Assembly: GCA_965226545.1 (NCBI GenBank)
Contig: OZ245364.1
Span: 2,170,397-2,234,396 of the forward strand
DNA from: Candidatus Poriferihabitaceae bacterium
GTDB taxonomy: Bacteria > Pseudomonadota > Gammaproteobacteria > Arenicellales > Poriferihabitantaceae
Direction: 5' to 3'
Length of the DNA stretch: 64,000 nt
Shown here piece after piece: positions 8,595-63,289 of the stretch. A program made the position numbers and the translations under genes. Positions within the stretch are counted from its first letter, which is position 1, and every line of letters begins with the position of its first letter. The notes under the pieces are model-generated. The model made no database searches, was not told where the DNA came from, and saw only the letters and a program-made list of their open reading frames with translations.

Positions 8595-9620
8595 TTACGA
8601 CTCGGCGGGTTGCGCTTCGGACAACTCGGCTTGCATTTGCGCGACATAGCGGGCGACGCCGTGCGCGACATCGGCGAACGGCGCAACGTAGCCGGCGGCG
8701 CGCAATTGAGTTAAATCGGCGCAGGTGTAATTTTGATATTTGCCGCGCAGGGCATCGGGCATCGGGATGTATTCGATGGCGCCAACCGCGCGCGCTTGGT
8801 CGAGTGTGTATGGCGCATCATCGCGCAGGCTGTTAATCACCGTGAGCGCGACTTCGTTAAAACTGTAACTTGCGCCGCTGCCGGCGTTGAACACGCCGCT
8901 TTGTTTCGGCTGGTCGTAAAAATGCAAATTGACCGCAACGATGTCGTCGACCGCGACAAAATCGCGGCGTTGTTCACCGTCGGCGCAGCCGTCTCCGCCG
9001 GCAAACAAGCGCACGCATTGTTGCGCGCGGTATTGATTAAAAAAATGCCGCGCCACCGACGCCATTCGGCCCTTGTGTTGTTCATAATCGCCATAGACAT
9101 TAAAATAACGCAAGCCGATGCATTGGCAATGAATTTTTTGTTGACTGAATTGCGCGCGCACATATTCATCGAACTGCAATTTCGAACGCGCATAACCGTT
9201 TAACGCCGATTCATATTGCGGCGATTCGATAAACACATTGCCGCCGCCATACACCGACGCCGACGAGGCGTAAAGATATTGCGCGCCGCAATCATTGCAA
9301 AAATGCAGCAGCGTTTTCGAATACTCCAAATTGTTGGCGCGCAGATAATCCTCATCGAGCATCATCGTGTCCGAACACGCGCCTTGATGAAACACCGCCG
9401 TGATGTCGCTGCGCGACGTCGAGGTTGCAGTTAACCCGCGCTGCGCCATCGTTAAAAACGAATGCTTATCGATGTATTCGGCGAATGATAACTTCGCAAG
9501 ATTCGGATGGTCGCGCGCATCGACCGAATCGACCGCGATGATGTCGGCAACGCCGCGCCGGTTTAACGCGGCAATAAGATTGGCGCCGATGAATCCGGCC
9601 GCGCCGGTAACGACAATCAT
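8595..9620 (-). CDS. hldD: ADP-L-glycero-D-manno-heptose 6-epimerase
   Basis: MIVVTGAAGFIGANLIAALNRRGVADIIAVD... parallels E. coli HldD/RfaD ([31 protein letters not shown]). Length is 341 aa. Confidence 0.9.
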   Translation of the reverse strand: MIVVTGAAGFIGANLIAALNRRGVADIIAVDSVDARDHPNLAKLSFAEYIDKHSFLTMAQRGLTATSTSRSDITAVFHQGACSDTMMLDEDYLRANNLEYSKTLLHFCNDCGAQYLYASSASVYGGGNVFIESPQYESALNGYARSKLQFDEYVRAQFSQQKIHCQCIGLRYFNVYGDYEQHKGRMASVARHFFNQYRAQQCVRLFAGGDGCADGEQRRDFVAVDDIVAVNLHFYDQPKQSGVFNAGSGASYSFNEVALTVINSLRDDAPYTLDQARAVGAIEYIPMPDALRGKYQNYTCADLTQLRAAGYVAPFADVAHGVARYVAQMQAELSEAQPAES

Positions 9621-10597
9621 CGCGCCAATCCGCCGAGCACTTCATCGACCGATGCGGTCGCCGCGCCGAGTTTGGAGACGACGATGCCGGCCACCGTGTT
9701 CGCCAATTCCAATGCATCATCATCGCCGAGCCCGACCGCGGCTGCCATCGCCATCACCGCCACCACCGAATCGCCGGCGCCGCTGACATCGAACACTTCG
9801 CGCGCGCGCGCGCGTTTGTAAATCGCATCGCTGCGCGAAAACAACGCCATGCCGCGTTCGCTTAATGTCACCAATAATTTATCCAGTTGACAGGCATCGA
9901 TTAACTCGAGCGCGCGGTTGCGCATCGCGTCGTCATCTTCGACCGTCGCGCCGACGGCTTGTTCGAATTCCTTGCGGTTGGGGGTGACCAAACTTGCGCC
10001 GCGATAGCGCGAATAATCGCCGCCTTTGGGGTCAATCAACACCGGCAACTTGCGCGCGCGACATTGCGCAATCCATTTTGCGGCAAAGCGCAAATTGCCC
10101 TTGCCGTAATCCGACAGCACGACGACATTGCATTGCGCCAACTTTGCCGCGAATTTTTCGGCGGCGGTTGCAAGCGCATCATCGCTCGGCGTCGATTCAA
10201 AATCGGCGCGCAACAACTGTTGTTTTTGCGCAAGCACGCGCAGTTTAATGGTGGTTTGCGCGTTGCGGTCGGCGATTAACTGCGCATCGATGCCGGCGTG
10301 TTCGGCGCGCGCGGTTAAGGTGCGCCCGGCGTCGTCATCGCCGACCACCGACAACAACGTACATTGCCCGCCGAGCGCGATGATGTTGCGCGCGACATTG
10401 CCGGCGCCGCCGAGTTGTTCATCGGTATCAGTCACGCCGACAATCGGCACCGGTGCCTCGGGCGAGATGCGATTGACTTCGCCAAACCAATATCTATCCA
10501 ACATTGCATCGCCCGCGACCAGCGCGCGCACGCCGCGCAACCGACCGAGCGCGTCGGCGAGATTCGATGGCGTTGATTTAGTGGCGGCCGATGCCAT
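9617..10597 (-). CDS. hldA: D-glycero-beta-D-manno-heptose-7-phosphate kinase (RfaE domain I only)
   Basis: 326 aa. ALVAGDAMLDRYWFGEVNRISPEAPVP and the C-terminal DVSGAGDSVVA are ribokinase-family/HldE kinase-domain motifs. There is no adenylyltransferase domain. Confidence 0.85.
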   Translation of the reverse strand: MASAATKSTPSNLADALGRLRGVRALVAGDAMLDRYWFGEVNRISPEAPVPIVGVTDTDEQLGGAGNVARNIIALGGQCTLLSVVGDDDAGRTLTARAEHAGIDAQLIADRNAQTTIKLRVLAQKQQLLRADFESTPSDDALATAAEKFAAKLAQCNVVVLSDYGKGNLRFAAKWIAQCRARKLPVLIDPKGGDYSRYRGASLVTPNRKEFEQAVGATVEDDDAMRNRALELIDACQLDKLLVTLSERGMALFSRSDAIYKRARAREVFDVSGAGDSVVAVMAMAAAVGLGDDDALELANTVAGIVVSKLGAATASVDEVLGGLAR

Positions 10598-51676: not shown

Positions 51677-54600
51677 TCAAAACCGCACCGCCCCCCGCAA
51701 CAACACCCGCCGTTCATCAACCGCCTTATCGTGTCGTTCGCCGGTAAGGTTCAAATCAAAATACCGATGCGGCGACCAATCGACGCCGAGGCGATAAAGG
51801 TCATCGTCGCCGGTGACGGCATCGAAGAACGGCGCGAATAATCCGCCTTGACTTTGGATGCCGTACGACAGCCGCGATTCGCTGCGCCAGCGATAATCAT
51901 CCGCGACATTGTCGTTACCGTCGCCGCCGTCAATATCATCCAACGATTCGGCATTCCACACCCCGCCGACCGTGCGCGCCGCTTCGCCGTAACTTGGGCG
52001 CAATCGCAACGCCAATCCCTGTCGGTCGCCGCCCGCGCTGATGCGCAACTGCCCATACGCGCCCCATTCTTGATACTCGGAGCGCCCCATTAAGCCGTGC
52101 GCGCCGATTTCGAATCGGGTGCGTTTGCCAAAATAATTCCACTTCGCCGCGCCTTCCAAGGCGGTGCCGGTGTCGCCGTCTCCGCCGTCTTGGCGCATGC
52201 CGAATTCGAAGAAGGCGGTGTGCGGGTCGGCGGCGGGGCGCATGCGCCATTTGAGCGCGAGACGCGCGGTGGTGGCGCGGATGGTTTGGGCGCGCAGGAT
52301 GTATTTGCGATTGCCGACGAGGGTTTCGAAGTCGTCTTCGATTTCCAACGCACCGCCATGCCATTCGCCGCGCACTTGCAGTTGCGGCGTGAGGTCGTCG
52401 CTTGCGCCGATGCCGGCGGCGGTCATATCGAGGTTGCTTGCAAGTTCACCGCCATCTTCGCGGCGGATGGTTAATTTGCCGTCGCCGACGCCGCTGCTCA
52501 GCCACAAATTAAAATCGCCGTGTTGCCAATTAAGATATTGGTATTGGCTATCGATGTTGATGCGGTATTCGCCGGTGGCGTCGTATCCGTCTATGGCGTT
52601 GCCGTCTTCGTCGATGGCGAATTGGTCGTCGAGTTCATAATCAATCACCGTGTCGTTCTTGGCGAAGGCGACGCCGAGCAGCAAATTATCCCATTGATAA
52701 TCGACGCCCAAATGCACGCCGTCCATTTCGCCGTGCCAATCGACGACATCGCTTTGCGATTTCATTTTGCGAAAATGCGCCCCGCCCCACACCGCCCCGC
52801 CATTGCGCGAAGGCGTTTCAGTTTGCAATGGCCATACAAAATGGCTGTCGTTTAATAGTTGTTTTTCATCCAGCACACCGTCCACATAGGCTTTGGCGGT
52901 GGTTGCCAACGCCGCCATCGGGTCTTGATGTCCGCCGATGCTTGCACTCGGCGTTTGGTTTGTGCGAAGTTTGGCGACTTCGATGCGGTCGGTGATTGCA
53001 TTCATCGCCGCCCCAACCATCACCGCCGCGACTTTGGATAATATCTCGACATTGGCTTCGGTGAATTCGTCAATCGCTTTGCCGCGGCCGACGGTTAACA
53101 TTAATGTCTGCGTCGCTTCGCCGATTTTATTATTTTGCATCATCAGGTTGGCGGTTAGCGAATAGGTTAACCCTTCGACATCAACCAGCCGACCAAACTC
53201 TTCATCGCTGATTAAGGTTTGGGTGGCGGCGTCATAACTTAACCCGGCGTCGCTCGGCGGTGGCGTAAATTCATAACTCAATGAAACGTTGCCGGCGGCA
53301 TAAGTCAAGCCCAAGTCCGGCGTGTTGGTTAATGAATACGTGGCGGCGACGCCGGCGGTGAAAAGTAATTCGCGGGTTGGTGCAACGGCAATCGGCAGGA
53401 TATCCAAGGTGAACACAGCCGTCACGCCCGCACCGTTTTTGTCGGTGGCGATATAGGTTAACAGCGGCGACAGTTGAGATGCGAAGGTGATGGTCAACGG
53501 CCCATAAATCGTGCGGTCAAATTCGTAATCGCCATCGTGCGCAAACTTGTTAAAGGTCAATTGCCGAGTCAAACCATAGAGTTCACTAATGTACGGCGCC
53601 CACCCGCCGCCGGCTTTCGGCAATTCCAATTCGCCTTGCCCGACGGTGTAGGTCAACGGCGAATCAACCGTCAATGCAATCGCTCGATGAATGCGGAAAG
53701 TAATCGGCAACATCGCCGATGCACCGTGGCGGTCAGTCGCAATCATCGTCAATAGGTAAGTTCGCTCGACTTCGGTGCCGCTATAAGCGCCCGGCGTACC
53801 GTCAATGCGCGGCGGGCTGTTCAGCAACGTCAATCCATCCGGCGGGTTGGGTTGCATCGAATAAGTTAACCCGCCAAAACCGTCGCTCGCTTGCGGCAAG
53901 GTGCCGCTGAAGGTATGTCCGACGGTGGCTTCCAACTGCTCCGCCGTAGTCGTAAAGGTCGGCGGCGGCACGATATGCACCATCAACGCAAAGGTGAACA
54001 TCCGCGCATCGACATCGGTCACGATTCGTTCGTAGGAATAATCGCCGATGCTGCGCGGGATTCCGCTGATGACGATTCTGTTGTCGGCGAGTTCGGTCGA
54101 GATGAAATCCGCCGGCAAGGTGTCGATGCCGCTGTGATACGACAACATCCCGATGCCGCCGGATGCATTGGGCAAGGTTAATGAATCGTTGCGATTGCCG
54201 TTTGCGGTGAAGGAGATTGCGCCGACGGTGTATGTCGCCGCCATCACCCCGGCCGCGAATTCAGGTTGGAAGATGCCGAAATCGAAGGTTGCGCTTGCGC
54301 TGGTCGAATCGAATGCATCGGTTGCGGTCAACACCAATCGCGTGCTGAATCGAGTTGGCGGGGCAACGCCGCTGAGTTGGTTGGCGGTGGCGTTATAGGT
54401 AACCCCGTTCGGCAAGGTTGGCCCGCCGCCGCCGACATCGGTCAAGGTATACACAATCGTCGGGTCGATGTAGTTCACCGCCCGGCCGAGCGATACGCTA
54501 AAGGTTGCGTTGGTGCCATAGCGCAATTCGCCCTGCGCGATTTGCAACGGCTCGGTTACATAAAATGCGGTGTTTTGTGCGGTGGTGGCGTTATGCGCAT

Positions 54601-56761
54601 CTCGGGCGTGATATGCCATTGCGTGCGTTGCCGCCGCCACCGGCGTGCCTGTAACGGCGCGCGTATTTTCTTCGAATGTGAATCCATTGGCGGCGAATGC
54701 CGGGTCGGTGAATGCCGAATATGTGCCGGCGGTTAGGCGATAGGTTAATGGGGCGGATGGCGTTATCGGCGTGCCGCCGGTGGCTTGCGGCAAGGTGATG
54801 TCGCTGATGGCGGTGCCGCTGCGGAAGGAATAGCCGACGGTGGTGAGTCGCGTAATATCCCCGGCGGCGAATGCCGGCGGGGTGACCAGGGCGATGGTGA
54901 AGGTGAGTTCGGCGATGCCGCCGAGTCCGTCTGATGCGACCAAGGTTACTTGTCGTTCGCCGGGGTTTGCCGCACCGCCGAGATAGCGCAATTCGCGGCT
55001 GTTGGGGTCGAATTGCAATGGCGAAGGCAACAGGGGGATTGCGTACGCCAACGGCAATCCGCTCGGCGAATCGGCGGTTGGCAAGGTGTATTCGGTGGCG
55101 GTGCCGATGCTGTAACTCAATGCGCTTTGGGTTGCCGTGAAGGTCGGGGCGGCGACGATGGTGAAGGTTAAATCGGCGAAGCCATAGCCAAGGCTGGGGG
55201 TGCTGCGCCGGGCATAAGCGGCGAGTAATCGCGCCGCATAACCGCTTAATAATCCGGCGGATGCGCGGCTGGCTACGGTTATCGGGTAATGGGTGTCGTC
55301 TGGGATTTCAACATCGAAGCCGTTGGCATCGAATGCGCTAAGTGCGGCGGCTTGGTCTGAGGTGCTCGCTTCGATTACCGAATAGATCACCACTTCCGGC
55401 GGCGCATCGCCTGTGGATTGCGGCAGGGTTATTGTGCGGGGTGCGCCTTGTACGAAGGTGAAGTTATAGCCGCTTGGCGTGAACCCCGGCGGGTCGGCGG
55501 TCACTTGTATCCACACTTGTGCGCTGTCGGTGTCGCCGTTGGTGTCCGTCACTGTGATGGTGTGTTCGGTTAATGGCGTGGCGGCGGCGGCGCCGGTTTG
55601 TTGGATGGTGTAGGTTAGCGGGGTGGAGCCGGTGGAGATTATGTCCAATCCGCCCGGCAACGATGGGGTGGCGGTAGCGGTGACAGTGCCGCTGCCGCCG
55701 GTGATGTCGAAACTATGTACGCCGGATGCGCCGCTTACATATACGAATGTGCCGATGTTTGCGACGGTGAATTCGGGTGGGTTATGCGCCGATATGTTAA
55801 ATGTTGTGGCGGCGGTGCCAACGTCGTTGGTGGCGGTTAGGATGTAGTCGCCGTCTGCGTCTGTGCCGATGGCGTCGGTGGCGATGAGTTCACGAGTGGC
55901 TTCATCGAATGTTAACGCCGCCGGGAAAGTGCCGGTTTCGCGGGTTAATGAGTAGGTTACGTTGTCGCCGGTGGCTTCTACGAGTGTGAATGCACCGGCT
56001 ACGCCGGCTTCGAATGTTAAGTCGGGTTGTGGGGTGGTGAAGTTTACTGGGGTGACGACAGAAAACCTGAGTGTGGACTGAGAGATGCCTGTGCCGATAG
56101 AAGCGTCTAAACTGAAGAACGCGCTTATTACATGGCTGTATTCAGAAATCCCTGCGCTTGTCCTGCTGGTTACAGTAATCGGGTAAACCCCGGGACTCGC
56201 GGAAAGTTCGAAACCGCGATTGTTAAATTCGTCGGCGACGGGGGTACCTGAGGCATTCGCCGAAATTATGTAACTTAAGGCGTTCATCGCATCGCCTTGC
56301 GCTTGTGGCAGTGTAACTGACGACACTGTGCCTTGCACGAAAGTGAAATGTATATTCGCAGCGGTAAATGTCGGCGCAGTGGCAAGCACTTGCATTTCAA
56401 CCGAAGAAGTGTCGCTGTCGCCGTTGGCATCGGTAATCGTCATCGAATAAGTCGACAACGCCGTCACCGTCGCCGCACCGGTTTGCGTGAAAGTGGCCGG
56501 CGTACCGTGCGACACCGTCAAACCACTCGGCAAAGCGGGGGAAAAGGAATAAGTTAAAACGCCGACGCCGCCGGTTACGGTGAATCTATGCGTACCGCCG
56601 CCGTCAGTAACCCAAACAAACGGACCCAACGAAGCCGCCACAGAAGGCCCAGTTTGCGCATTGGCATGCGGAATACAAACCATACACAACAACACCAGAC
56701 AACCCCAATAAAACAAAAACCCGCGACAAACCGAATTGGCGGCGGCGAGCGGTGCGGGCAT
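51677..56761 (-). CDS. Giant autotransporter adhesin with tandem Ig-like (He_PIG/cadherin-like) passenger modules
   Basis: The signal-like start MPAPLAAANSVCRGFLFYWGCLVLLCMVCIPHANAQ at 56761 is preferred over the TTG at 56914. More than 10 modules of ~95-100 aa recur with LTYS(L/F)T...LP.GLT motifs. The C-terminal ~280 aa is beta-barrel-like and ends LLRGAVRF. Confidence 0.8.
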   Translation of the reverse strand: MPAPLAAANSVCRGFLFYWGCLVLLCMVCIPHANAQTGPSVAASLGPFVWVTDGGGTHRFTVTGGVGVLTYSFSPALPSGLTVSHGTPATFTQTGAATVTALSTYSMTITDANGDSDTSSVEMQVLATAPTFTAANIHFTFVQGTVSSVTLPQAQGDAMNALSYIISANASGTPVADEFNNRGFELSASPGVYPITVTSRTSAGISEYSHVISAFFSLDASIGTGISQSTLRFSVVTPVNFTTPQPDLTFEAGVAGAFTLVEATGDNVTYSLTRETGTFPAALTFDEATRELIATDAIGTDADGDYILTATNDVGTAATTFNISAHNPPEFTVANIGTFVYVSGASGVHSFDITGGSGTVTATATPSLPGGLDIISTGSTPLTYTIQQTGAAAATPLTEHTITVTDTNGDTDSAQVWIQVTADPPGFTPSGYNFTFVQGAPRTITLPQSTGDAPPEVVIYSVIEASTSDQAAALSAFDANGFDVEIPDDTHYPITVASRASAGLLSGYAARLLAAYARRSTPSLGYGFADLTFTIVAAPTFTATQSALSYSIGTATEYTLPTADSPSGLPLAYAIPLLPSPLQFDPNSRELRYLGGAANPGERQVTLVASDGLGGIAELTFTIALVTPPAFAAGDITRLTTVGYSFRSGTAISDITLPQATGGTPITPSAPLTYRLTAGTYSAFTDPAFAANGFTFEENTRAVTGTPVAAATHAMAYHARDAHNATTAQNTAFYVTEPLQIAQGELRYGTNATFSVSLGRAVNYIDPTIVYTLTDVGGGGPTLPNGVTYNATANQLSGVAPPTRFSTRLVLTATDAFDSTSASATFDFGIFQPEFAAGVMAATYTVGAISFTANGNRNDSLTLPNASGGIGMLSYHSGIDTLPADFISTELADNRIVISGIPRSIGDYSYERIVTDVDARMFTFALMVHIVPPPTFTTTAEQLEATVGHTFSGTLPQASDGFGGLTYSMQPNPPDGLTLLNSPPRIDGTPGAYSGTEVERTYLLTMIATDRHGASAMLPITFRIHRAIALTVDSPLTYTVGQGELELPKAGGGWAPYISELYGLTRQLTFNKFAHDGDYEFDRTIYGPLTITFASQLSPLLTYIATDKNGAGVTAVFTLDILPIAVAPTRELLFTAGVAATYSLTNTPDLGLTYAAGNVSLSYEFTPPPSDAGLSYDAATQTLISDEEFGRLVDVEGLTYSLTANLMMQNNKIGEATQTLMLTVGRGKAIDEFTEANVEILSKVAAVMVGAAMNAITDRIEVAKLRTNQTPSASIGGHQDPMAALATTAKAYVDGVLDEKQLLNDSHFVWPLQTETPSRNGGAVWGGAHFRKMKSQSDVVDWHGEMDGVHLGVDYQWDNLLLGVAFAKNDTVIDYELDDQFAIDEDGNAIDGYDATGEYRINIDSQYQYLNWQHGDFNLWLSSGVGDGKLTIRREDGGELASNLDMTAAGIGASDDLTPQLQVRGEWHGGALEIEDDFETLVGNRKYILRAQTIRATTARLALKWRMRPAADPHTAFFEFGMRQDGGDGDTGTALEGAAKWNYFGKRTRFEIGAHGLMGRSEYQEWGAYGQLRISAGGDRQGLALRLRPSYGEAARTVGGVWNAESLDDIDGGDGNDNVADDYRWRSESRLSYGIQSQGGLFAPFFDAVTGDDDLYRLGVDWSPHRYFDLNLTGERHDKAVDERRVLLRGAVRF

Positions 56762-57034
56762 TGGCGGGGAAAGAGGGCGATAAGACACGGGATAATCATC
56801 GATAACAAACGCAACGAAACTGACAAAACAGCGGCGGCAATAATCACAAATGCAAACAACCGCAAACCAATCGCATACCAAACGCAAAATACCCTGCTTG
56901 GCGGAAGATGTCAAGGGGTTTTTTTGGGGAATGTGTGGTGGGGTTAATGGAAATGTTGGGGGTTTATTGTGGTATTAACACGAGTGAAAACGATGCCGCC
57001 CGCAACCGGTTAAGGTGGTGCGGGCGGGGATGGA

Positions 57035-57526
57035 TTAGTTAAAAATGTTCAGGATGCCCAAAACGGCAACCACTGCGCCGATAATCCCAAGCACTGTGCC
57101 GATAATCCCGAGAAACCACGAAAAGTTGCGATGAAAGCGAGCCGATTCCTCATCACGCCGCCGCTGGTCCTCACGATGCCGCTTGTCAGCCGCCGCCATC
57201 TCCTCGCGATGTCGCCGCTCATCTTCACGCCGCCGCTGCGCATCCACAGCACGCTCGGCACGACGACGACGCTCCTCGGCGGCACGTTCATTCCGCCAAC
57301 GTTTCTCGGCATCCGCCAACATCTTCGCCGTGGATTTGTCGTTCTTCGCCATGACTCGAGCGATGGCGACTTCCAAACTTTCCGTCGCAACCAAATTCGC
57401 CTGCGCATTCCGCAAGGCAACAACAATCGCCTTCGCCAACTCATCCGGCATACCGGCATTGGCAATTTTGTCGGATTCTTGCAAAGTGTCGAATTCGGGT
57501 TTCGGGGGTTTCGTTGAGGGTTTCAT
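57035..57526 (-). CDS. DUF1640-like tail-anchored coiled-coil protein, paralogue 1
   Basis: MKPSTKPPKPEFDTLQESDKIANAGMPDELAKAIVVALRNAQANLV..., then an Arg/Glu-rich coiled coil and the C-terminal TM WFLGIIGTVLGIIGAVVAVLGIL. GGAG lies 7 nt upstream of the ATG. Confidence 0.8.
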   Translation of the reverse strand: MKPSTKPPKPEFDTLQESDKIANAGMPDELAKAIVVALRNAQANLVATESLEVAIARVMAKNDKSTAKMLADAEKRWRNERAAEERRRRAERAVDAQRRREDERRHREEMAAADKRHREDQRRRDEESARFHRNFSWFLGIIGTVLGIIGAVVAVLGILNIFN

Positions 57527-57566
57527 TGGTGACTCCGTCAAATTGAGGTTAAGGATGATAAACCAA

Positions 57567-57583
57567 TGCAATATCAAATTGCA
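57567..57583. promoter_or_regulatory. Palindrome TGCAAT-atcaa-ATTGCA upstream of paralogue 1 (variants occur upstream of the other paralogues)
   Basis: The identical 17-mer recurs at 59008-59024 (upstream of paralogue 3). The degenerate forms GGCAacatcaaaTGCC (~58305-58320) and TGCAATATCAAACTGCC (~59676-59692) lie upstream of paralogues 2 and 4. Each is ~40-65 nt from its ATG. Confidence 0.4.
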
Positions 57584-57615
57584 CAAATGTCAAGCCGCAC
57601 AAGCGTTGATGCGGA

Positions 57616-58239
57616 TTAGCCGAAAATTTTCAGTACGCCCAAAACGGCAACCACTACGCCGATAATCCCGAGCGCTGTGCCGATAATCCCGAGAAACCAC
57701 GACAAAGTGCGATGAGCGCGATCCGAATCTTTGGCGCGCTGCTGTTGGTCCTCGCGATGCTGCTTGTCGCGCGCCGCCATATCTTCCTTATGACGTTGCT
57801 GCTCTTCACGACGAAGTTTTTCATCCGCAGCACGGTCTTCACGCCGACGCCGCTCTTCGGCGGCGCGTTCTTCGCGACGACGTTGTTCATCGGCGGCGCG
57901 GTCTTTCTGCCGACGTTGCTCTTCGGCGGCGCGGTCTTCCCGCCAGCGTGCTTCGGTGGCAGCCATATCCTCGCGATGAATTCGTCTGGCTTCAGCCATC
58001 GCCGCTTGAAAGCGATGTTCGGCATCCGCCGACCTTTTCGCCATGGATTTGTCGAATTTCGCGAATACTTTGTCGATATCGCCTTCGAGACGTTCCGTAG
58101 AGACCAAATTCGCCTGCGCATTCTGTAAGGCGACCACAATCGCCTTCGCCAACTCATCCGGCATGCCGGCATTGGCAATTTTGTCGGATTCTTGCAAAGT
58201 GTCGAATTCGGGTTTCGGTTGTTTCGTTGAGGGTTTCAT
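57616..58239 (-). CDS. DUF1640-like tail-anchored coiled-coil protein, paralogue 2
   Basis: Same N-terminal 45 aa and same C-terminal TM as paralogue 1. The 3' ~200 nt is nearly identical to paralogue 3. It has four 11-aa (E/D)RAA(E/D)E(Q/R)RR-type units. Confidence 0.8.
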   Translation of the reverse strand: MKPSTKQPKPEFDTLQESDKIANAGMPDELAKAIVVALQNAQANLVSTERLEGDIDKVFAKFDKSMAKRSADAEHRFQAAMAEARRIHREDMAATEARWREDRAAEEQRRQKDRAADEQRRREERAAEERRRREDRAADEKLRREEQQRHKEDMAARDKQHREDQQQRAKDSDRAHRTLSWFLGIIGTALGIIGVVVAVLGVLKIFG

Positions 58240-58376
58240 TGGTGACTCCATCAGGATTGAATAAAGAATGAAATACGATTTACAAAGTTAAGGATAACAA
58301 AAAGGCAACATCAAATGCCTCGCCAAAAATACCGCGCAACGCCCGCGCCGTCAAGCCGCGTGGGGGTTGATGCGGA

Positions 58377-58967
58377 TTAGCCGAAAATTTTCAGTACGCC
58401 CAAAACGGCAACCACTACGCCGATAATCCCGAGCGCTGTGCCGATAATCCCGAGAAACCACGACAAAGTGCGATGAGCGCGATCCGAATCTTTGGCGCGC
58501 TGCTGTTGGTCCTCGCGATGCTGCTTATCGCGCGCCGCCATATCTTCCTTATGACGTTGCTGCTCTTCACGACGGCGTTGCTCATCCGCGGCGCGGTTTT
58601 CGCTGTGGCGTTTCTCTTCGGCGGCGCGGTCTTTCTGCCGACGTTGCTCTTCGGCGGCGCGGTCTTCCCGCCAACGTGCTTCGGTGGCCGCCATATCTTC
58701 GCGATGAAGTCGTCTGGCTTCAGCCATCGCCGCTTGAAAGCGATGTTCGGCATCCGCCGACCTTTTCGCCATGGAGTTGTCGAATTTCGCGAATACTTTG
58801 TCGATATCGCCTTCGAGACGTTCCGTAGAAACCAAATTCGCCTGCGCATTCTGCAAGGCAACAACAATCGCCTTCGCCAACTCATCCGGCATGCCGGCAT
58901 TGGCAATTTTGTCGGATTCTTGCAAAGTGTCGAATTCGGGTTTCGGGGGTTTCGTTGAGGGTTTCAT
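58377..58967 (-). CDS. DUF1640-like tail-anchored coiled-coil protein, paralogue 3
   Basis: As above, with three 11-aa Arg/Glu units. The GGAG-N7-ATG start context is conserved. Confidence 0.8.
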   Translation of the reverse strand: MKPSTKPPKPEFDTLQESDKIANAGMPDELAKAIVVALQNAQANLVSTERLEGDIDKVFAKFDNSMAKRSADAEHRFQAAMAEARRLHREDMAATEARWREDRAAEEQRRQKDRAAEEKRHSENRAADEQRRREEQQRHKEDMAARDKQHREDQQQRAKDSDRAHRTLSWFLGIIGTALGIIGVVVAVLGVLKIFG

Positions 58968-59056
58968 TGGTGACTCCGTCAAATTGAGGTTAAGGGTGAT
59001 AAACGAATGCAATATCAAATTGCATAGCCGCCAAGCCGCGCAGGCGTTGATGCGGA

Positions 59057-59626
59057 TTAGCCGAAAATTTTCAGTACGCCCAAAACGGCAACCACTGCGC
59101 CGATAATCCCGAGCGCTGTGCCGATAATCCCGAGAAACAGCGACAAAGTGCGATGAGCGCGATCCGCATCTTTGTCGCGCCGCTGTTGGTCATCGCGATG
59201 CTGCTTGTCGCGCGCCGCCATATCTTCCTTATGACGCCGCTCATCCGCGGCGCGGTTTTCGCTGTGGCGTTTCTCTTCGGCGGCGCGTTCTTCGCGGTGG
59301 CGTTGCTCTTCGGCGGCGCGGTCTTCGCGACGACGTTGTTCATCGGCGGCGCGGTCTTCCCGCCAGCGTTTTTCGATTGCCGCCATATCCTCGCGATGAA
59401 GTCGTCTGGCATCAGCCAACATCTTCGCCATGGATTTATCGCTTTTCGCCAAGATTTTGTCAATATTGCCTTCGAGACGTTCCGTAGAGACCAAATTCGC
59501 CTGCGCATTCTGCAAGGCGACCACAATCGCCTTCGCCAATTCATCCGGCATGCCGGCATCGGCAATTTTGTCGGATTCTTGCAAAGTGTCGAATTCGGGT
59601 TTCGGGGGTTTGGTTGAGGGTTTCAT
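59057..59626 (-). CDS. DUF1640-like tail-anchored coiled-coil protein, paralogue 4
   Basis: As above, with four Arg/Glu units. The start context and TM tail are conserved. Confidence 0.8.
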   Translation of the reverse strand: MKPSTKPPKPEFDTLQESDKIADAGMPDELAKAIVVALQNAQANLVSTERLEGNIDKILAKSDKSMAKMLADARRLHREDMAAIEKRWREDRAADEQRRREDRAAEEQRHREERAAEEKRHSENRAADERRHKEDMAARDKQHRDDQQRRDKDADRAHRTLSLFLGIIGTALGIIGAVVAVLGVLKIFG

Positions 59627-59749
59627 TGGTGACTCCATCAAGATTGAATAAAGAATAAAATACGATTTACAAAAATGCAATATCAAACTGCCACGCCAAA
59701 ATACCCCCAAACACCCCCGCCGTCAAGCCGCGCGGGCGTTAATTGCCAA

Positions 59750-60259
59750 TTAGTCGATAAAAATCAGCCCGAGTGTGAGATAAACCACAAAAATAAACGC
59801 CGTCCAAATCGCCAAATCGCCGACCGAAACGGAATCCATAACAATACGCCACAAGTCGACTTCCGTAATTATTAACGTCACCGCCATCGGTGCCGCCATA
59901 AACGCAACCGCGGAACACATGATGAGCGTTCCTACGTAGACGCTCGTCGCTTTGTGGTTGCCGGCATAAGAGAGCAACCATGCGAGACGGCTCAAACCGA
60001 TAAACCCAATCGCCGCCACCATTGCCAATTGTGGATTGAAATGAATGCTGAGCGACACCACGCCAATGACCGCCGCCGTAAACGCCGTCAACAAAACGGT
60101 CGCCGCCACCGCAATGAAATACACGCGCAACAACCGTTGACCGTAACGATTCGAATCGCCGACGTACGCCTGATTAATCGCAGACGCCGCTTGTTCCGCT
60201 TGTTCAGCGGACAAACCGGCATCGCGCAAAATTTCCAAAGTCGAGTGCGCGGGGTTCAT
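59750..60259 (-). CDS. Four-TM membrane protein with an N-terminal helix resembling the paralogue head domain
   Basis: From the ATG at 60259: MNPAHSTLEILRDAGLSAEQAEQAASAINQA, then four hydrophobic helices. It is on the same strand, directly upstream of the paralogue array. Confidence 0.6.
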   Translation of the reverse strand: MNPAHSTLEILRDAGLSAEQAEQAASAINQAYVGDSNRYGQRLLRVYFIAVAATVLLTAFTAAVIGVVSLSIHFNPQLAMVAAIGFIGLSRLAWLLSYAGNHKATSVYVGTLIMCSAVAFMAAPMAVTLIITEVDLWRIVMDSVSVGDLAIWTAFIFVVYLTLGLIFID

Positions 60260-61861: not shown

Positions 61862-62077
61862 GCGGTTGGGTTTACTTTAACTTCGCGGTTGCCGTTTTGA
61901 TTGATTTTTATTTTTAGTTTACTTTACAGTTTACTTTTATAGTTTACTTTTATTTTATTTTTTTAGTTAACATTAACTTGATTCACTTTAAGTTGATAAC
62001 TTGTTAACTTATTAACGCATTAACTTCTTAACCCACCCGCATTACCCCATCGCTTATTTAACTTGAGCCAATCAACC

Positions 62078-63289
62078 ATGCCCCCCGATTGGCGTGCGCG
62101 CGCCTTGATTGACATTGGCGCATTGCGGCGCAATCTTGATGCGGTGCGCGAGAAAGCGGCCGGGTGTGCGGTGATGGCGGTGCTCAAAGCCGATGCATAC
62201 GGACACGGCATCGATGCGGTGTGTCGCGCGGTGCGCGGGCGAGTCGATGCCATCGCCGTGGCGACGATGGATGAAGCGTTGGCGTGTCGGGCGATTTGTG
62301 ATGAACTGCATATCTGCGTGTTGTCGCCCGGCATCGAGCGCGATTGGTTGGCGTTGTGCGCACGGATGCGATTGACGCCGGTGCTGCACGATTTTGCGCA
62401 ATTGCAGGCGGCGCAACAGTATGCAGGCGCGGCGTTGGAGGTGTGGCTGAAAGTGGACAGCGGAATGAATCGACTCGGCATCGCCTTCGATGACGCACAA
62501 ACCGCATTCACCCAACTGGCGCGCAATGCGCAAATTAACATTGTCGGCGTGATGTCGCATCTGGCAAATGCGGAAGTGCGTAATGTTAATGCAACTGTCG
62601 ATGCAACCGGCGCTGTCGTCGGCAATGCAATCAACGATGAAACTTGCAATGTAACTTGTGATGCAATCGACGATGCAACCGACGATGTAACTTACGATGT
62701 CACCAACGACATAACGCGCATACAAACCGAACGGTTTTTGCACAGCACCGCGCACTGCAATCGCCCGCGCAGTTTAGCCAACTCGGCGGCGGTGTGCGCG
62801 CATCCGTCAACGCATTTGGATTGGGTGCGTCCGGGGTTGATGTTATACGGCGCATCGCCGTTTGCGGATGTCGATGCGCGCGCCTTGGGATTGTCGGCGG
62901 TGATGAAATTGCAGACGCGATTATTGGCGGTCAAACAAATTGCGCGCGGCGCGCGGGTTGGCTATGGCGGCGCGTTTGTTGCGCGCAAGGCAATGCGAAT
63001 TGGCGTCGCCGGGCTGGGCTATGCCGACGGCTATCCGCGCCTGCCGGGCGTCGATGCATTCACCTTGGTGCGCGGCAAACGCGCGCCGATTGTCGGGCGG
63101 GTATCGATGGATATGATGACGTTGGATGTATCGAAGTGCGGCGCCGTCGAAGTCGGCGATGTGGTCGATGTGTGGGGCGATGATGCAACCCTCAACGTTG
63201 AACAAGTCGCCGCCGCCGGCGGAATGATTGCGCATGAGTTGCTGTGCCGAGTCGGCGCGCGAGTCGGGCGGGTGTATTTGGATTCGTGA
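62078..63289 (+). CDS. alr: Alanine racemase with a ~45-aa low-complexity insert
   Basis: MPPDWRARALIDIGALRRNLDAV..., the PLP-lysine region AVLKADAYGHG, and the conserved dnaB-alr neighbourhood. The insert is at ~62575-62715. Confidence 0.9.
   Translation: MPPDWRARALIDIGALRRNLDAVREKAAGCAVMAVLKADAYGHGIDAVCRAVRGRVDAIAVATMDEALACRAICDELHICVLSPGIERDWLALCARMRLTPVLHDFAQLQAAQQYAGAALEVWLKVDSGMNRLGIAFDDAQTAFTQLARNAQINIVGVMSHLANAEVRNVNATVDATGAVVGNAINDETCNVTCDAIDDATDDVTYDVTNDITRIQTERFLHSTAHCNRPRSLANSAAVCAHPSTHLDWVRPGLMLYGASPFADVDARALGLSAVMKLQTRLLAVKQIARGARVGYGGAFVARKAMRIGVAGLGYADGYPRLPGVDAFTLVRGKRAPIVGRVSMDMMTLDVSKCGAVEVGDVVDVWGDDATLNVEQVAAAGGMIAHELLCRVGARVGRVYLDS

Follow-up and report, generated by a model that had tools for sequence, protein, structure and literature searches.

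A concertedly evolving tandem array of tail-anchored proteins, very probably with remote DUF1640/CCDC90-type heads, upstream of a giant autotransporter-like gene in a sponge-symbiont lineage

Introduction

On the minus strand of the 64,000-nucleotide stretch analysed here (the window; contig OZ245364.1 of assembly GCA_965226545.1, from a Candidatus Poriferihabitaceae bacterium), four short genes follow one another between positions 57035 and 59710, upstream of a gene coding for a giant surface protein. Each of them codes for a nearly invariant head, a highly charged middle part built from 11-residue units and a C-terminal transmembrane (TM) segment. The locus raises the question of what such an array is, whether its genes are real, and what connects them to the giant neighbour, if anything does. 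A first-pass annotation of the window had described them as tandem paralogues of a DUF1640-like, tail-anchored coiled-coil protein. In what follows, the copies are named A to D, and the array of the window is referred to as type I, as opposed to the type II array found at a second locus. We consider it about an even chance that the array represents a concertedly evolving family of tail-anchored inner-membrane proteins with remote relatives among the DUF1640/CCDC90 proteins, with oligomeric cytoplasmic stalks and possibly coupled to the neighbouring adhesin.

Organisation of the array

The four open reading frames (ORFs) are arranged head to tail on the minus strand, and the start-to-start spacings of 581, 761 and 680 bp given previously were recovered from direct-repeat families. 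Paralogue D (59057-59626) codes for 189 residues, made up of the head, a short amphipathic neck, four 11-residue Arg/Glu units and the C-terminal TM segment. It is followed by C (58377-58967, 196 residues, three units), B (57616-58239, 207 residues, four units) and A (57035-57526, 163 residues, two units), which agrees with the two to four units per paralogue that had been counted from the letters alone. The units correspond to 33-nt tandem repeats detected by Tandem Repeats Finder (TRF), at 59239-59359 in D (period 33, 3.7 copies, 85% matches), at 58573-58688 in C (two overlapping rows, 58573-58667 and 58616-58688) and at 57803-57960 in B, where the period is 33 or 66 nt. The two units of A (ERAAEERRRRA and ERAVDAQRRRE, residues 80-101) lie at 57224-57289, as computed from the start of the gene. 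All these tracts are on the minus strand.

In the protein alignment, the head reads MKPSTK(P/Q)PKPEFDTLQESDKIA(N/D)AGMPDELAKAIVVAL(Q/R)NAQANLV, and with only one or two substitutions per copy (Q7 in B, D23 in D and R39 in A) its first 45 residues are indeed nearly identical. A less conserved amphipathic segment comes after it, and then the repeat zone, for which the type I consensus is (E/D/N)RAA(E/D)E(Q/K/R)R(R/H)x(E/K). The juxtamembrane motif RH(K/R)E(D/E)MAAxDK(Q/R)HR(E/D)DQ is conserved in all four copies, as is the TM tail, (W/L)FLGIIGTxLGIIGxVVAVLGxL, which had been described correctly except that it begins with LFLG in D. This tail contains the single hydrophobic stretch of the proteins (17-25 residues, within the last 30 or so), no other hydrophobic segment being present, and none of them has a signal peptide. 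Part of the TM-coding sequence is a 21-nt duplication (LGIIGTx LGIIGxV), found on the minus strand at 57067-57109 in A (TRF period 21) and at 59095-59134 in D, which results in a Gly-zipper-like TM segment; strain variants of 157 and 168 residues are without the duplication and have a shorter TM segment. The start context common to the four genes is GGAG, as noted earlier, placed six nucleotides before the ATG and not seven.

Mirror ORFs of 120-170 residues cross every paralogue in other frames and on the plus strand (for example 57183-57665, 58473-58958 and 59153-59617). The exact products of A-D are absent from a collection of 15 billion proteins in which the products of flanking genes from the same 2.67-Mb contig are present, which may come from gene callers mishandling the array. 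Together with the repeats, the mirror ORFs may let gene callers miss loci of this kind.

Selection and concerted evolution

Selection was assessed on 17 copies from five strains, that is, from the window and four related strains. The ratio of nonsynonymous to synonymous divergence (pN/pS) is 0.13 for the head, taken as the first 50 codons, which indicates purifying selection on this reading frame. The synonymous divergence itself falls from 0.50 in the membrane-proximal stalk to 0.17 in the head, and the head therefore appears to be homogenised as well as selected.

The identity between copies is distributed as a mosaic. In the last 60 nt upstream of the genes, D and B are 96% identical and C and A 95%, compared with just 66% across the pairs, while in the coding middle and 3' end it is C and B that are most similar (98%), D being intermediate and A an outlier with 72-80% nucleotide identity outside the head. 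The heads of all four copies are 93-97% identical at the nucleotide level. This mosaic points to a duplicated two-gene unit which was later overwritten by gene conversion or unequal crossing-over, and the single difference between B and C within their last 197 nt, already pointed out in the first-pass annotation, fits the recent duplication or gene conversion proposed there. The array genes are thus real rather than chance ORFs, and they evolve in concert.

The intergenic regions, all read on the minus strand, are consistent with the same two-gene unit structure. Long-type spacers precede D (59627-59749, where the GGAG-N6-ATG context and two promoter-like sites, TTGACG-17-TATTTT and TTGATA-18-TATTTT, are found) and B (the C-B spacer, 58240-58376, 137 nt). 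Within the latter there is a promoter-like TTGACG-17-TATTTT (58354-58326), as well as two terminator-like hairpins with a U-run behind each (58334-58348 and 58302-58321). Short-type spacers of 89 nt separate D from C (58968-59056, without strong RNA structure) and B from A (57527-57615). After A, a hairpin followed by CAUCGUUUUC at 56996-57027 (minus strand; −22 kcal/mol, z −4.5, none of 200 shuffles folding as well) likely ends the array as an intrinsic terminator. A separate promoter-like TTGACA-17-TATTTT, at 56914-56886, precedes the giant gene. All of these promoter- and terminator-like sites are consensus matches and RNA folds, and are no evidence of function.

Variation between co-occurring strains

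Among 5.8 billion protein clusters, only four related ones were found, all of them from ENA assembly ERZ25073868, where they are located on contigs of up to 2.74 Mb (loci L001-L004). The order alr - dnaB - four-TM protein - array - giant He_PIG gene - ligA is shared by these loci and the window, with flanks that are 93-97.6% identical at the nucleotide level. The arrays themselves are all different: 189-196-207-163 residues in the window, 189-196-163 in L004, 189-196-168-188 in L003, 294-196-168-188 in L002 and 157-207-188 in L001. Copy number and length therefore vary as had been suspected, with three or four copies of 157-294 residues in the five haplotypes, and the locus is hypervariable among co-occurring strains. 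Individual copies can nevertheless be followed from strain to strain. D is identical in L003 and has one conservative change (E for D) in L004, where A also has a 163-residue orthologue with one residue changed; C is closest to the 196-residue P0001, present on three other contigs. In the 188-residue variant the juxtamembrane motif is duplicated internally. Since the arrays were assembled independently on several contigs, of 34 kb to 2.7 Mb and from one sample, the variation is real, and the assembly artefact that had been named as a possible objection is not borne out.

The first gene of the L002 array (9112-9996) codes for the divergent 294-residue paralogue. Its head is degenerate (KLEFDTSNDSP…) and does not have the AGMPDELAKAIVVAL helix, and its stalk consists of four ERNQAAATAAD and three KQRREDRAAAE units followed by the C-terminal TM segment. 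It has no match in Pfam.

A second array upstream of a second giant gene

The first-pass annotation had advised looking for further copies in the rest of the genome, and a second, diverged array was found, which is also located upstream of a paralogous giant gene. On a 316-kb contig of the same sample (L085, 9341-12205), the sequence P0006 is part of an array of four full-length paralogues and a truncated one. This array directly precedes a giant He_PIG gene of the same orientation, the two being flanked by acs and guaB. The possibility of L085 belonging to a second lineage was ruled out by cluster membership and by its tetranucleotide signature, the correlation of which with the window (r 0.96-0.98) is as high as that of the window's own strains. 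Moreover, type II paralogues (205, 194, 227 and 201 residues) occur on the 2,672,430-bp contig that also carries the window's upstream membrane protein and giant protein, and further ones on the 2.37- and 2.74-Mb contigs of L001 and L002. The shared contigs and the signature indicate two modules per genome in this lineage. The second strain for which this locus is available (L090, 5890-8623) has an array of 194-165-216-(98)-201 residues, different from that of L085, followed by a gene for a giant protein of 2728 residues with a clean signal peptide and then by guaB.

The two modules are deeply diverged. Between type I and type II array proteins the overall identity is 26-34%, with 34-53% in the heads; between the two giant proteins it is 33% over about 1750 residues, and 46% in the C-terminal barrel domains. 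That an array upstream of a giant gene was kept at two such loci with unrelated flanks is our main argument for a functional link between the two. At the window locus the flanks are housekeeping genes (alr, dnaB, ligA and smc), with no phage or integrase genes. A phage or defence origin of the array was considered and rejected given these flanks and the absence of any match to defence models.

The giant protein of the window (51677-56761, minus strand, 1694 residues) has a Sec-type signal peptide (…LLCMVCIPHANA/QT), He_PIG immunoglobulin-like repeats (E 6e-9) and a predicted C-terminal outer-membrane beta-barrel. The protein itself has no PF03797 (Autotransporter) or NCBIfam match. Its last 424 residues have homologues, P0044 and P0046 (E 1e-18 and 1e-14, 27-28% identity over 97-98%), which pass PF03797 with 43 and 41 bits, respectively, against a cut-off of 26. 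The AlphaFold2 (AF2) model of the C-terminal domain is an all-beta barrel (predicted template-modelling score 0.61) with more strands than the classical 12, and the Foldseek matches to it are outer-membrane barrels including the autotransporters EstA and BrkA. The neighbour had been called a giant autotransporter, a description which suits an outer-membrane barrel protein with such homologues. We find 'autotransporter-like' reasonable, as the predicted barrel may differ from the classical 12-stranded type.

A tract of 21-nt repeats (L085, 12249-12551; L090, 8667-8948) with an ORF of MHL(D/G)G(V/A)x heptads separates the type II array from its giant gene. It is probably non-coding repeat DNA located just upstream of the giant gene.

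The head and its relatives

The PF07798 family includes human MCUR1 and CCDC90B, yeast Put6/Put7 and many uncharacterised prokaryotic members. When an 83-residue head sequence was compared with 1.84 billion representatives using phmmer, the only matches were its own cluster, a sister cluster with 53% identity and an unchanged architecture (P0006), two long repeat proteins and three short proteins with a tail anchor (E 1e-5 to 7e-4). A head profile retrieved 30 short tail-anchored proteins of 76-122 residues, 10 of which carry a precomputed PF07798 annotation. Within the alignment of short proteins (A3), 15 of the 19 members match PF07798 at E ≤ 0.01, and for ten of the short proteins it is the sole Pfam match at E ≤ 0.001, always at model positions 2-37. 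The window clade aligned with the short-protein group (16 proteins) with an hhalign probability of 95.6% (E 1e-8, 68 columns), and BLASTP of B against P0011 gave 38% identity over 66 residues. The top PDB match of the head profile is CCDC90B (6h9m), which aligns with the FDTL…AG…AKAIVVAL motif; with a full-length profile, the PDB sequence search returned charged-helix noise only, and A-D and the head likewise gave only low-complexity noise in Pfam, NCBIfam, PHROGs and PADLOC.

Where the stalk begins, DUF1640 proteins have a beta-layer motif, [aliphatic]-A-T-K-[polar]-[D/E] (PMC4786415). The corresponding junction is VATESL in A and VSTERL in B, C and D, matching three to four of the six positions, with the K and D/E unmatched. 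Taken together, these comparisons make it very probable that the head is remotely related to the DUF1640/CCDC90 type. The array proteins are not formal members of PF07798, and the earlier label 'DUF1640-like' thus stands as a remote similarity of the head, not as a direct family match. Two bridging DUF1640-like proteins of 96-101 residues (L086, 8001-8306; L087, 8001-8291) are single genes in island-like contexts.

Outside these relatives the distribution is narrow. Pattern scans with the family alignments gave no relative in GTDB genomes, JGI metagenomes or IMG/VR, and tblastn gave no relative of the array proteins in plasmids. The window DnaB is at most 68% identical to that of any of 185,579 GTDB species representatives, its best matches being from sponge-symbiont metagenome-assembled genomes (Candidatus Spongiihabitans, Poriferihabitaceae and Arenicellales), and in 80 related genomes neither the array nor the upstream membrane protein had a homologue within 10 kb of dnaB. 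Among the 15 billion proteins searched, the array family is found in this lineage alone.

Stalk and membrane anchor

The AF2 model of B, a monomer prediction, consists of one long helix spanning residues 28-206, with a predicted local distance difference test (pLDDT) above 90 for residues 90-160. Owing to the shallow alignment, the head is poorly resolved, and Foldseek of this model gave no match, the pLDDT of the head being too low to inform. The repeat zone contains 60-80% D/E/K/R and 0-5% bulky hydrophobic residues. In type I, windows of 21 residues are up to 81% charged, and by a crude count there are 16-19 pairs of opposite charge at i+3/i+4 for 5-7 of like charge. This composition is that of a charged single alpha-helix. 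There is also an Ala-Ala stripe every 11 residues, and the type II repeats keep the 11-residue period ((E/Q)RAADKKE(H/R)A(D/E), DQRAADQQRLA), from which an Ala-cored hendecad bundle is also possible. The highly charged segment that the first-pass annotation called a 'coiled coil' is predicted to be helical; its composition fits a charged single helix or an Ala-stripe hendecad at least as well as a classical coiled coil. Residues 45-100, where the amphipathic spacing is ordinary, could be an oligomerising neck.

Other features of the locus

Upstream of the array lies a gene for a 169-residue protein (59750-60259, minus strand) whose N-terminus is short and polar (MNPAHSTLEILRDAGLSAEQAEQAASAINQAY) and precedes about four hydrophobic segments. 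It is kept at the locus in all strains, with orthologues in L001-L004 (phmmer E 1e-68), and has no match in Pfam, NCBIfam, PHROG or PADLOC. The array had been placed between a related membrane protein and the giant gene, all on one strand. The position and strand are correct, while 'related' scores just 52.6% when the N-terminus is compared with the head profile A7 by hhalign.

Further upstream, alr (62063-63289, plus strand) holds a 12/24/36-nt tandem repeat at 62625-62715, which codes for an insert rich in Asp, Thr, Asn and Val (…NVNATVDATGAVVGNAINDETCNVTCDAIDDATDDVTYDVTNDITR…); the called length of Alr is 408 residues in the window and 371-399 in related strains. The dnaB-alr intergenic region contains a 13-nt tandem repeat (TTTACTTTTATAG, 5.2 copies) at 61907-61968. 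Beyond alr in L001 (117-3114), and at the equivalent positions in L002-L004, there are genes of the adenosine-phosphosulfate reductase beta-subunit family (PF12139) and of a flavin adenine dinucleotide-binding flavoprotein family. They look like aprBA, which would fit a sulfur-oxidising lifestyle.

Discussion

In the reading that we favour, the head of about 45 residues (FDTLxESxKIxxAGMPxELAKAIVVALxNAQANLV) would be cytoplasmic and likely a binding module, carried by a stalk made of a short amphipathic coiled-coil neck and a helical Arg/Glu/Asp/Ala spacer of two to four hendecads. After the conserved juxtamembrane motif, a Gly-rich C-terminal TM helix would anchor the protein. The lack of a signal peptide, combined with the positive charges before the TM segment, would place the bulk of the protein in the cytoplasm (N-in, C-out). 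The coiled coil of MCUR1 faces the matrix, and MCUR1 and CCDC90B form hetero-oligomers (bioRxiv 10.1101/2025.10.14.682030). By analogy, an N-in topology would be expected for the array proteins too, and their stalks may be homo- or hetero-oligomers, as the Gly-zipper-like TM segment would also allow. Judging from its composition, the stalk could be a stiff spacer, holding the head some 15-30 nm from the membrane and adjustable in steps of 11 residues (about 1.6 nm each), and slippage or recombination among the 33-nt units and the gene copies would alter stalk length and copy number between strains. From the linkage, the array may have a role in making, localising or regulating the giant surface protein.

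A number of observations weigh against this reading. Regarding the head, none of A-D matches PF07798 at E ≤ 1, nor do the isolated head or P0006 at E ≤ 10; the ten short bridging proteins score 22-32 bits, under the Pfam gathering threshold of 33.5 bits; and the CCDC90B match is not significant alone (E 0.085, or 0.017 with a longer profile). Regarding the stalk, the repeat zone has no hydrophobic core, which makes a classical trimeric coiled coil doubtful, and the type II repeats (P0006) are without the favourable salt-bridge pattern, so that the single-helix reading is not general. Regarding the coupling, a cytoplasmic stalk has no obvious route to an outer-membrane protein, and the terminator- and promoter-like sites suggest that the giant gene is transcribed apart from the array. 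A third giant gene of the He_PIG barrel type in the same sample (L091, 4046-9953) stands without an array; it is apparently split into ORFs of 1056 and 650 residues and is preceded by a gene for a 168-residue protein matching PF24838 (8xMP). No head-like ORF was found near 24 related barrel genes in JGI metagenomes, for which the flanks are limited. Finally, short DUF1640-like relatives adjoin toxin-antitoxin pairs, an integrase, a type I restriction-modification methylase or a 1309-residue RTX protein.

Several of these points would be expected if the array were a passenger, that is, a self-propagating and recombination-prone family comparable to the Bdr proteins of Borrelia, which acts alone (with a role, for instance, in stress or membrane physiology or in phage-related exclusion) and is next to the giant gene only because both reside in a variable island concerned with host interaction. 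Array and giant gene are apparently transcribed as separate units, the third He_PIG locus does without an array, and the short relatives are found among toxin-antitoxin, integrase and restriction-modification genes; DUF1640 genes have also been reported from Liberibacter prophage regions (PMC5291501). The Bdr proteins moreover share their plan with the array proteins, from the conserved N-terminus, variable 11-residue repeats and anchor to the paralogues and the surface-gene neighbours. They have no detectable homology to the head, however (0.2% by hhalign), the window locus is flanked by housekeeping genes with neither phage nor integrase genes, and the array proteins match no PHROG or PADLOC family whose function is known. 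An array plus giant gene maintained in two modules at 33-53% identity is also hard to explain without selection on the linkage. We therefore regard a passenger as rather unlikely, while keeping a substantial weight on it. At the other extreme, the arrays could be an unrecognised accessory system for giant autotransporter-type adhesins, in which paralogues differing in their number of rigid Arg/Glu hendecads would co-assemble into inner-membrane stalks. With the conserved head kept at defined distances from the membrane, these stalks would serve as adjustable rulers or platforms for the nascent pre-protein, for its mRNA and ribosomes or for the export machinery, and recombination of units and copies would retune the system between strains of one sponge. 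Such a system seems to us improbable.

The conserved linkage to an outer-membrane protein would be explained directly by a strut, with the N-terminus outside, a helix of about 22 nm crossing the periplasm in the manner of Lpp or of trimeric autotransporter stalks, and the head touching the giant protein, so that its length tunes the spacing of the envelope. The AF2 helix of about 150 residues is indeed about as long as the Gram-negative periplasm is wide. To our knowledge, however, segments as highly charged as the N-terminal 175 or so residues (40-80%) are not translocated without a leader, and there is no signal peptide. Although DUF1640 proteins have been likened to the stalks of trimeric autotransporter adhesins because of the beta-layer motif (PMC4786415), the homologous coiled coil of MCUR1 is on the matrix side, which is equivalent to the cytoplasm, and the Arg/His residues before the TM segment, with only four to five residues after it, favour N-in by the positive-inside rule. 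This makes a strut very unlikely. Least probable of all, and hardly to be entertained, is that the ORFs do not code for functional proteins, being decaying or spurious frames in a GC-rich repeat tract or an artefact of assembly. The long mirror ORFs, the absence of the exact products from a collection that contains those of the neighbours, and the truncated copy at the second locus could be read in this way. The pN/pS of the head could not, and neither could the conservation of start codon, ribosome-binding site and TM tail in 17 genes from five strains with every frame intact, the independent assembly of the arrays on contigs of 34 kb to 2.7 Mb, or the same architecture in the diverged type II array.

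The lineage offers a natural experiment: each genome has two arrays with at least eight paralogues between them, the head is strongly conserved, the stalk length is free to change between co-occurring strains, and the linkage to a giant surface adhesin gene is reproducible. It also provides testable hypotheses, namely that the head is a binding module, the stalk a spacer, and the partner to be sought near the adhesin pathway. This is relevant for the bacterial relatives of DUF1640/CCDC90, which are without known function, at a time when MCUR1 and CCDC90B are being reinterpreted as membrane scaffolds.

Comparison with known systems

With the DUF1640/CCDC90 proteins, the array proteins share a small N-terminal head (FDT..L...L...G....A..IV.AL) leading into a helical stalk past a T-containing junction, and one TM anchor at the C-terminus. 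Most of the chain lies on the matrix or cytoplasmic side in both, by prediction in the case of the array proteins. In both cases paralogues coexist, MCUR1 and CCDC90B forming a hetero-oligomeric membrane scaffold. The array proteins differ in having the stalk replaced or lengthened by an almost core-less Arg/Glu hendecad repeat of variable copy number, in being encoded by tandem arrays of three to five genes linked to a giant autotransporter-like gene, and in being confined to one uncultured lineage. The repeat zone itself resembles the charged single alpha-helices of the ER/K type (myosin VI/X, caldesmon), which act as rigid spacers: it has 60-80 residues with 60-80% D/E/K/R and is confidently modelled by AF2 as an isolated helix. 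Unlike these, it has an Ala-Ala stripe per 11 residues and is placed between a putative oligomerising neck and a Gly-zipper-like TM segment, and so may form a hendecad bundle instead of remaining monomeric. The DUF883 proteins of E. coli (ElaB/YqjD/YgaM) are also small inner-membrane proteins with one C-terminal TM segment, a helical cytoplasmic N-terminal part and several paralogues. They are unrelated, did not turn up in the searches made here, and have neither the repeats nor the tandem array.

The Bdr proteins of Borrelia have a conserved N-terminus, variable 11-residue repeats, a C-terminal inner-membrane anchor, several paralogues and surface-lipoprotein neighbours, and their function is unknown (PMC10016077, PMC3303823). 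As in the array, the number of 33-nt repeats differs between paralogues and strains, and the families are shaped by recombination. This likeness is one of analogy only, homology of the head to Bdr having been rejected by hhalign. The Bdr repeats are KID-type and hydrophobic heptad-like, as opposed to the Arg/Glu/Ala repeats seen here: Bdr from cp32-1 matches the KID repeat (PF02524, model length 11) at E 9e-21, and the array proteins have no PF02524 match. The bdr genes are dispersed on plasmids and prophages (cp32) in a spirochaete, while those described here form chromosomal tandem arrays in a gammaproteobacterial sponge symbiont. What is new in the latter is the Arg/Glu hendecad spacer, the presence in each genome of two chromosomal tandem arrays, their conserved pairing with genes for giant He_PIG autotransporter-like proteins, and a distribution limited to a single uncultured lineage of sponge symbionts. 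By homology, the nearest family is DUF1640/CCDC90, remotely and without formal membership, and the closest analogue is Bdr. The array would be a second independent example of a tail-anchored protein with variable 11-residue repeats next to a surface gene, and the recurrence of this design suggests a convergent solution in host-associated bacteria.

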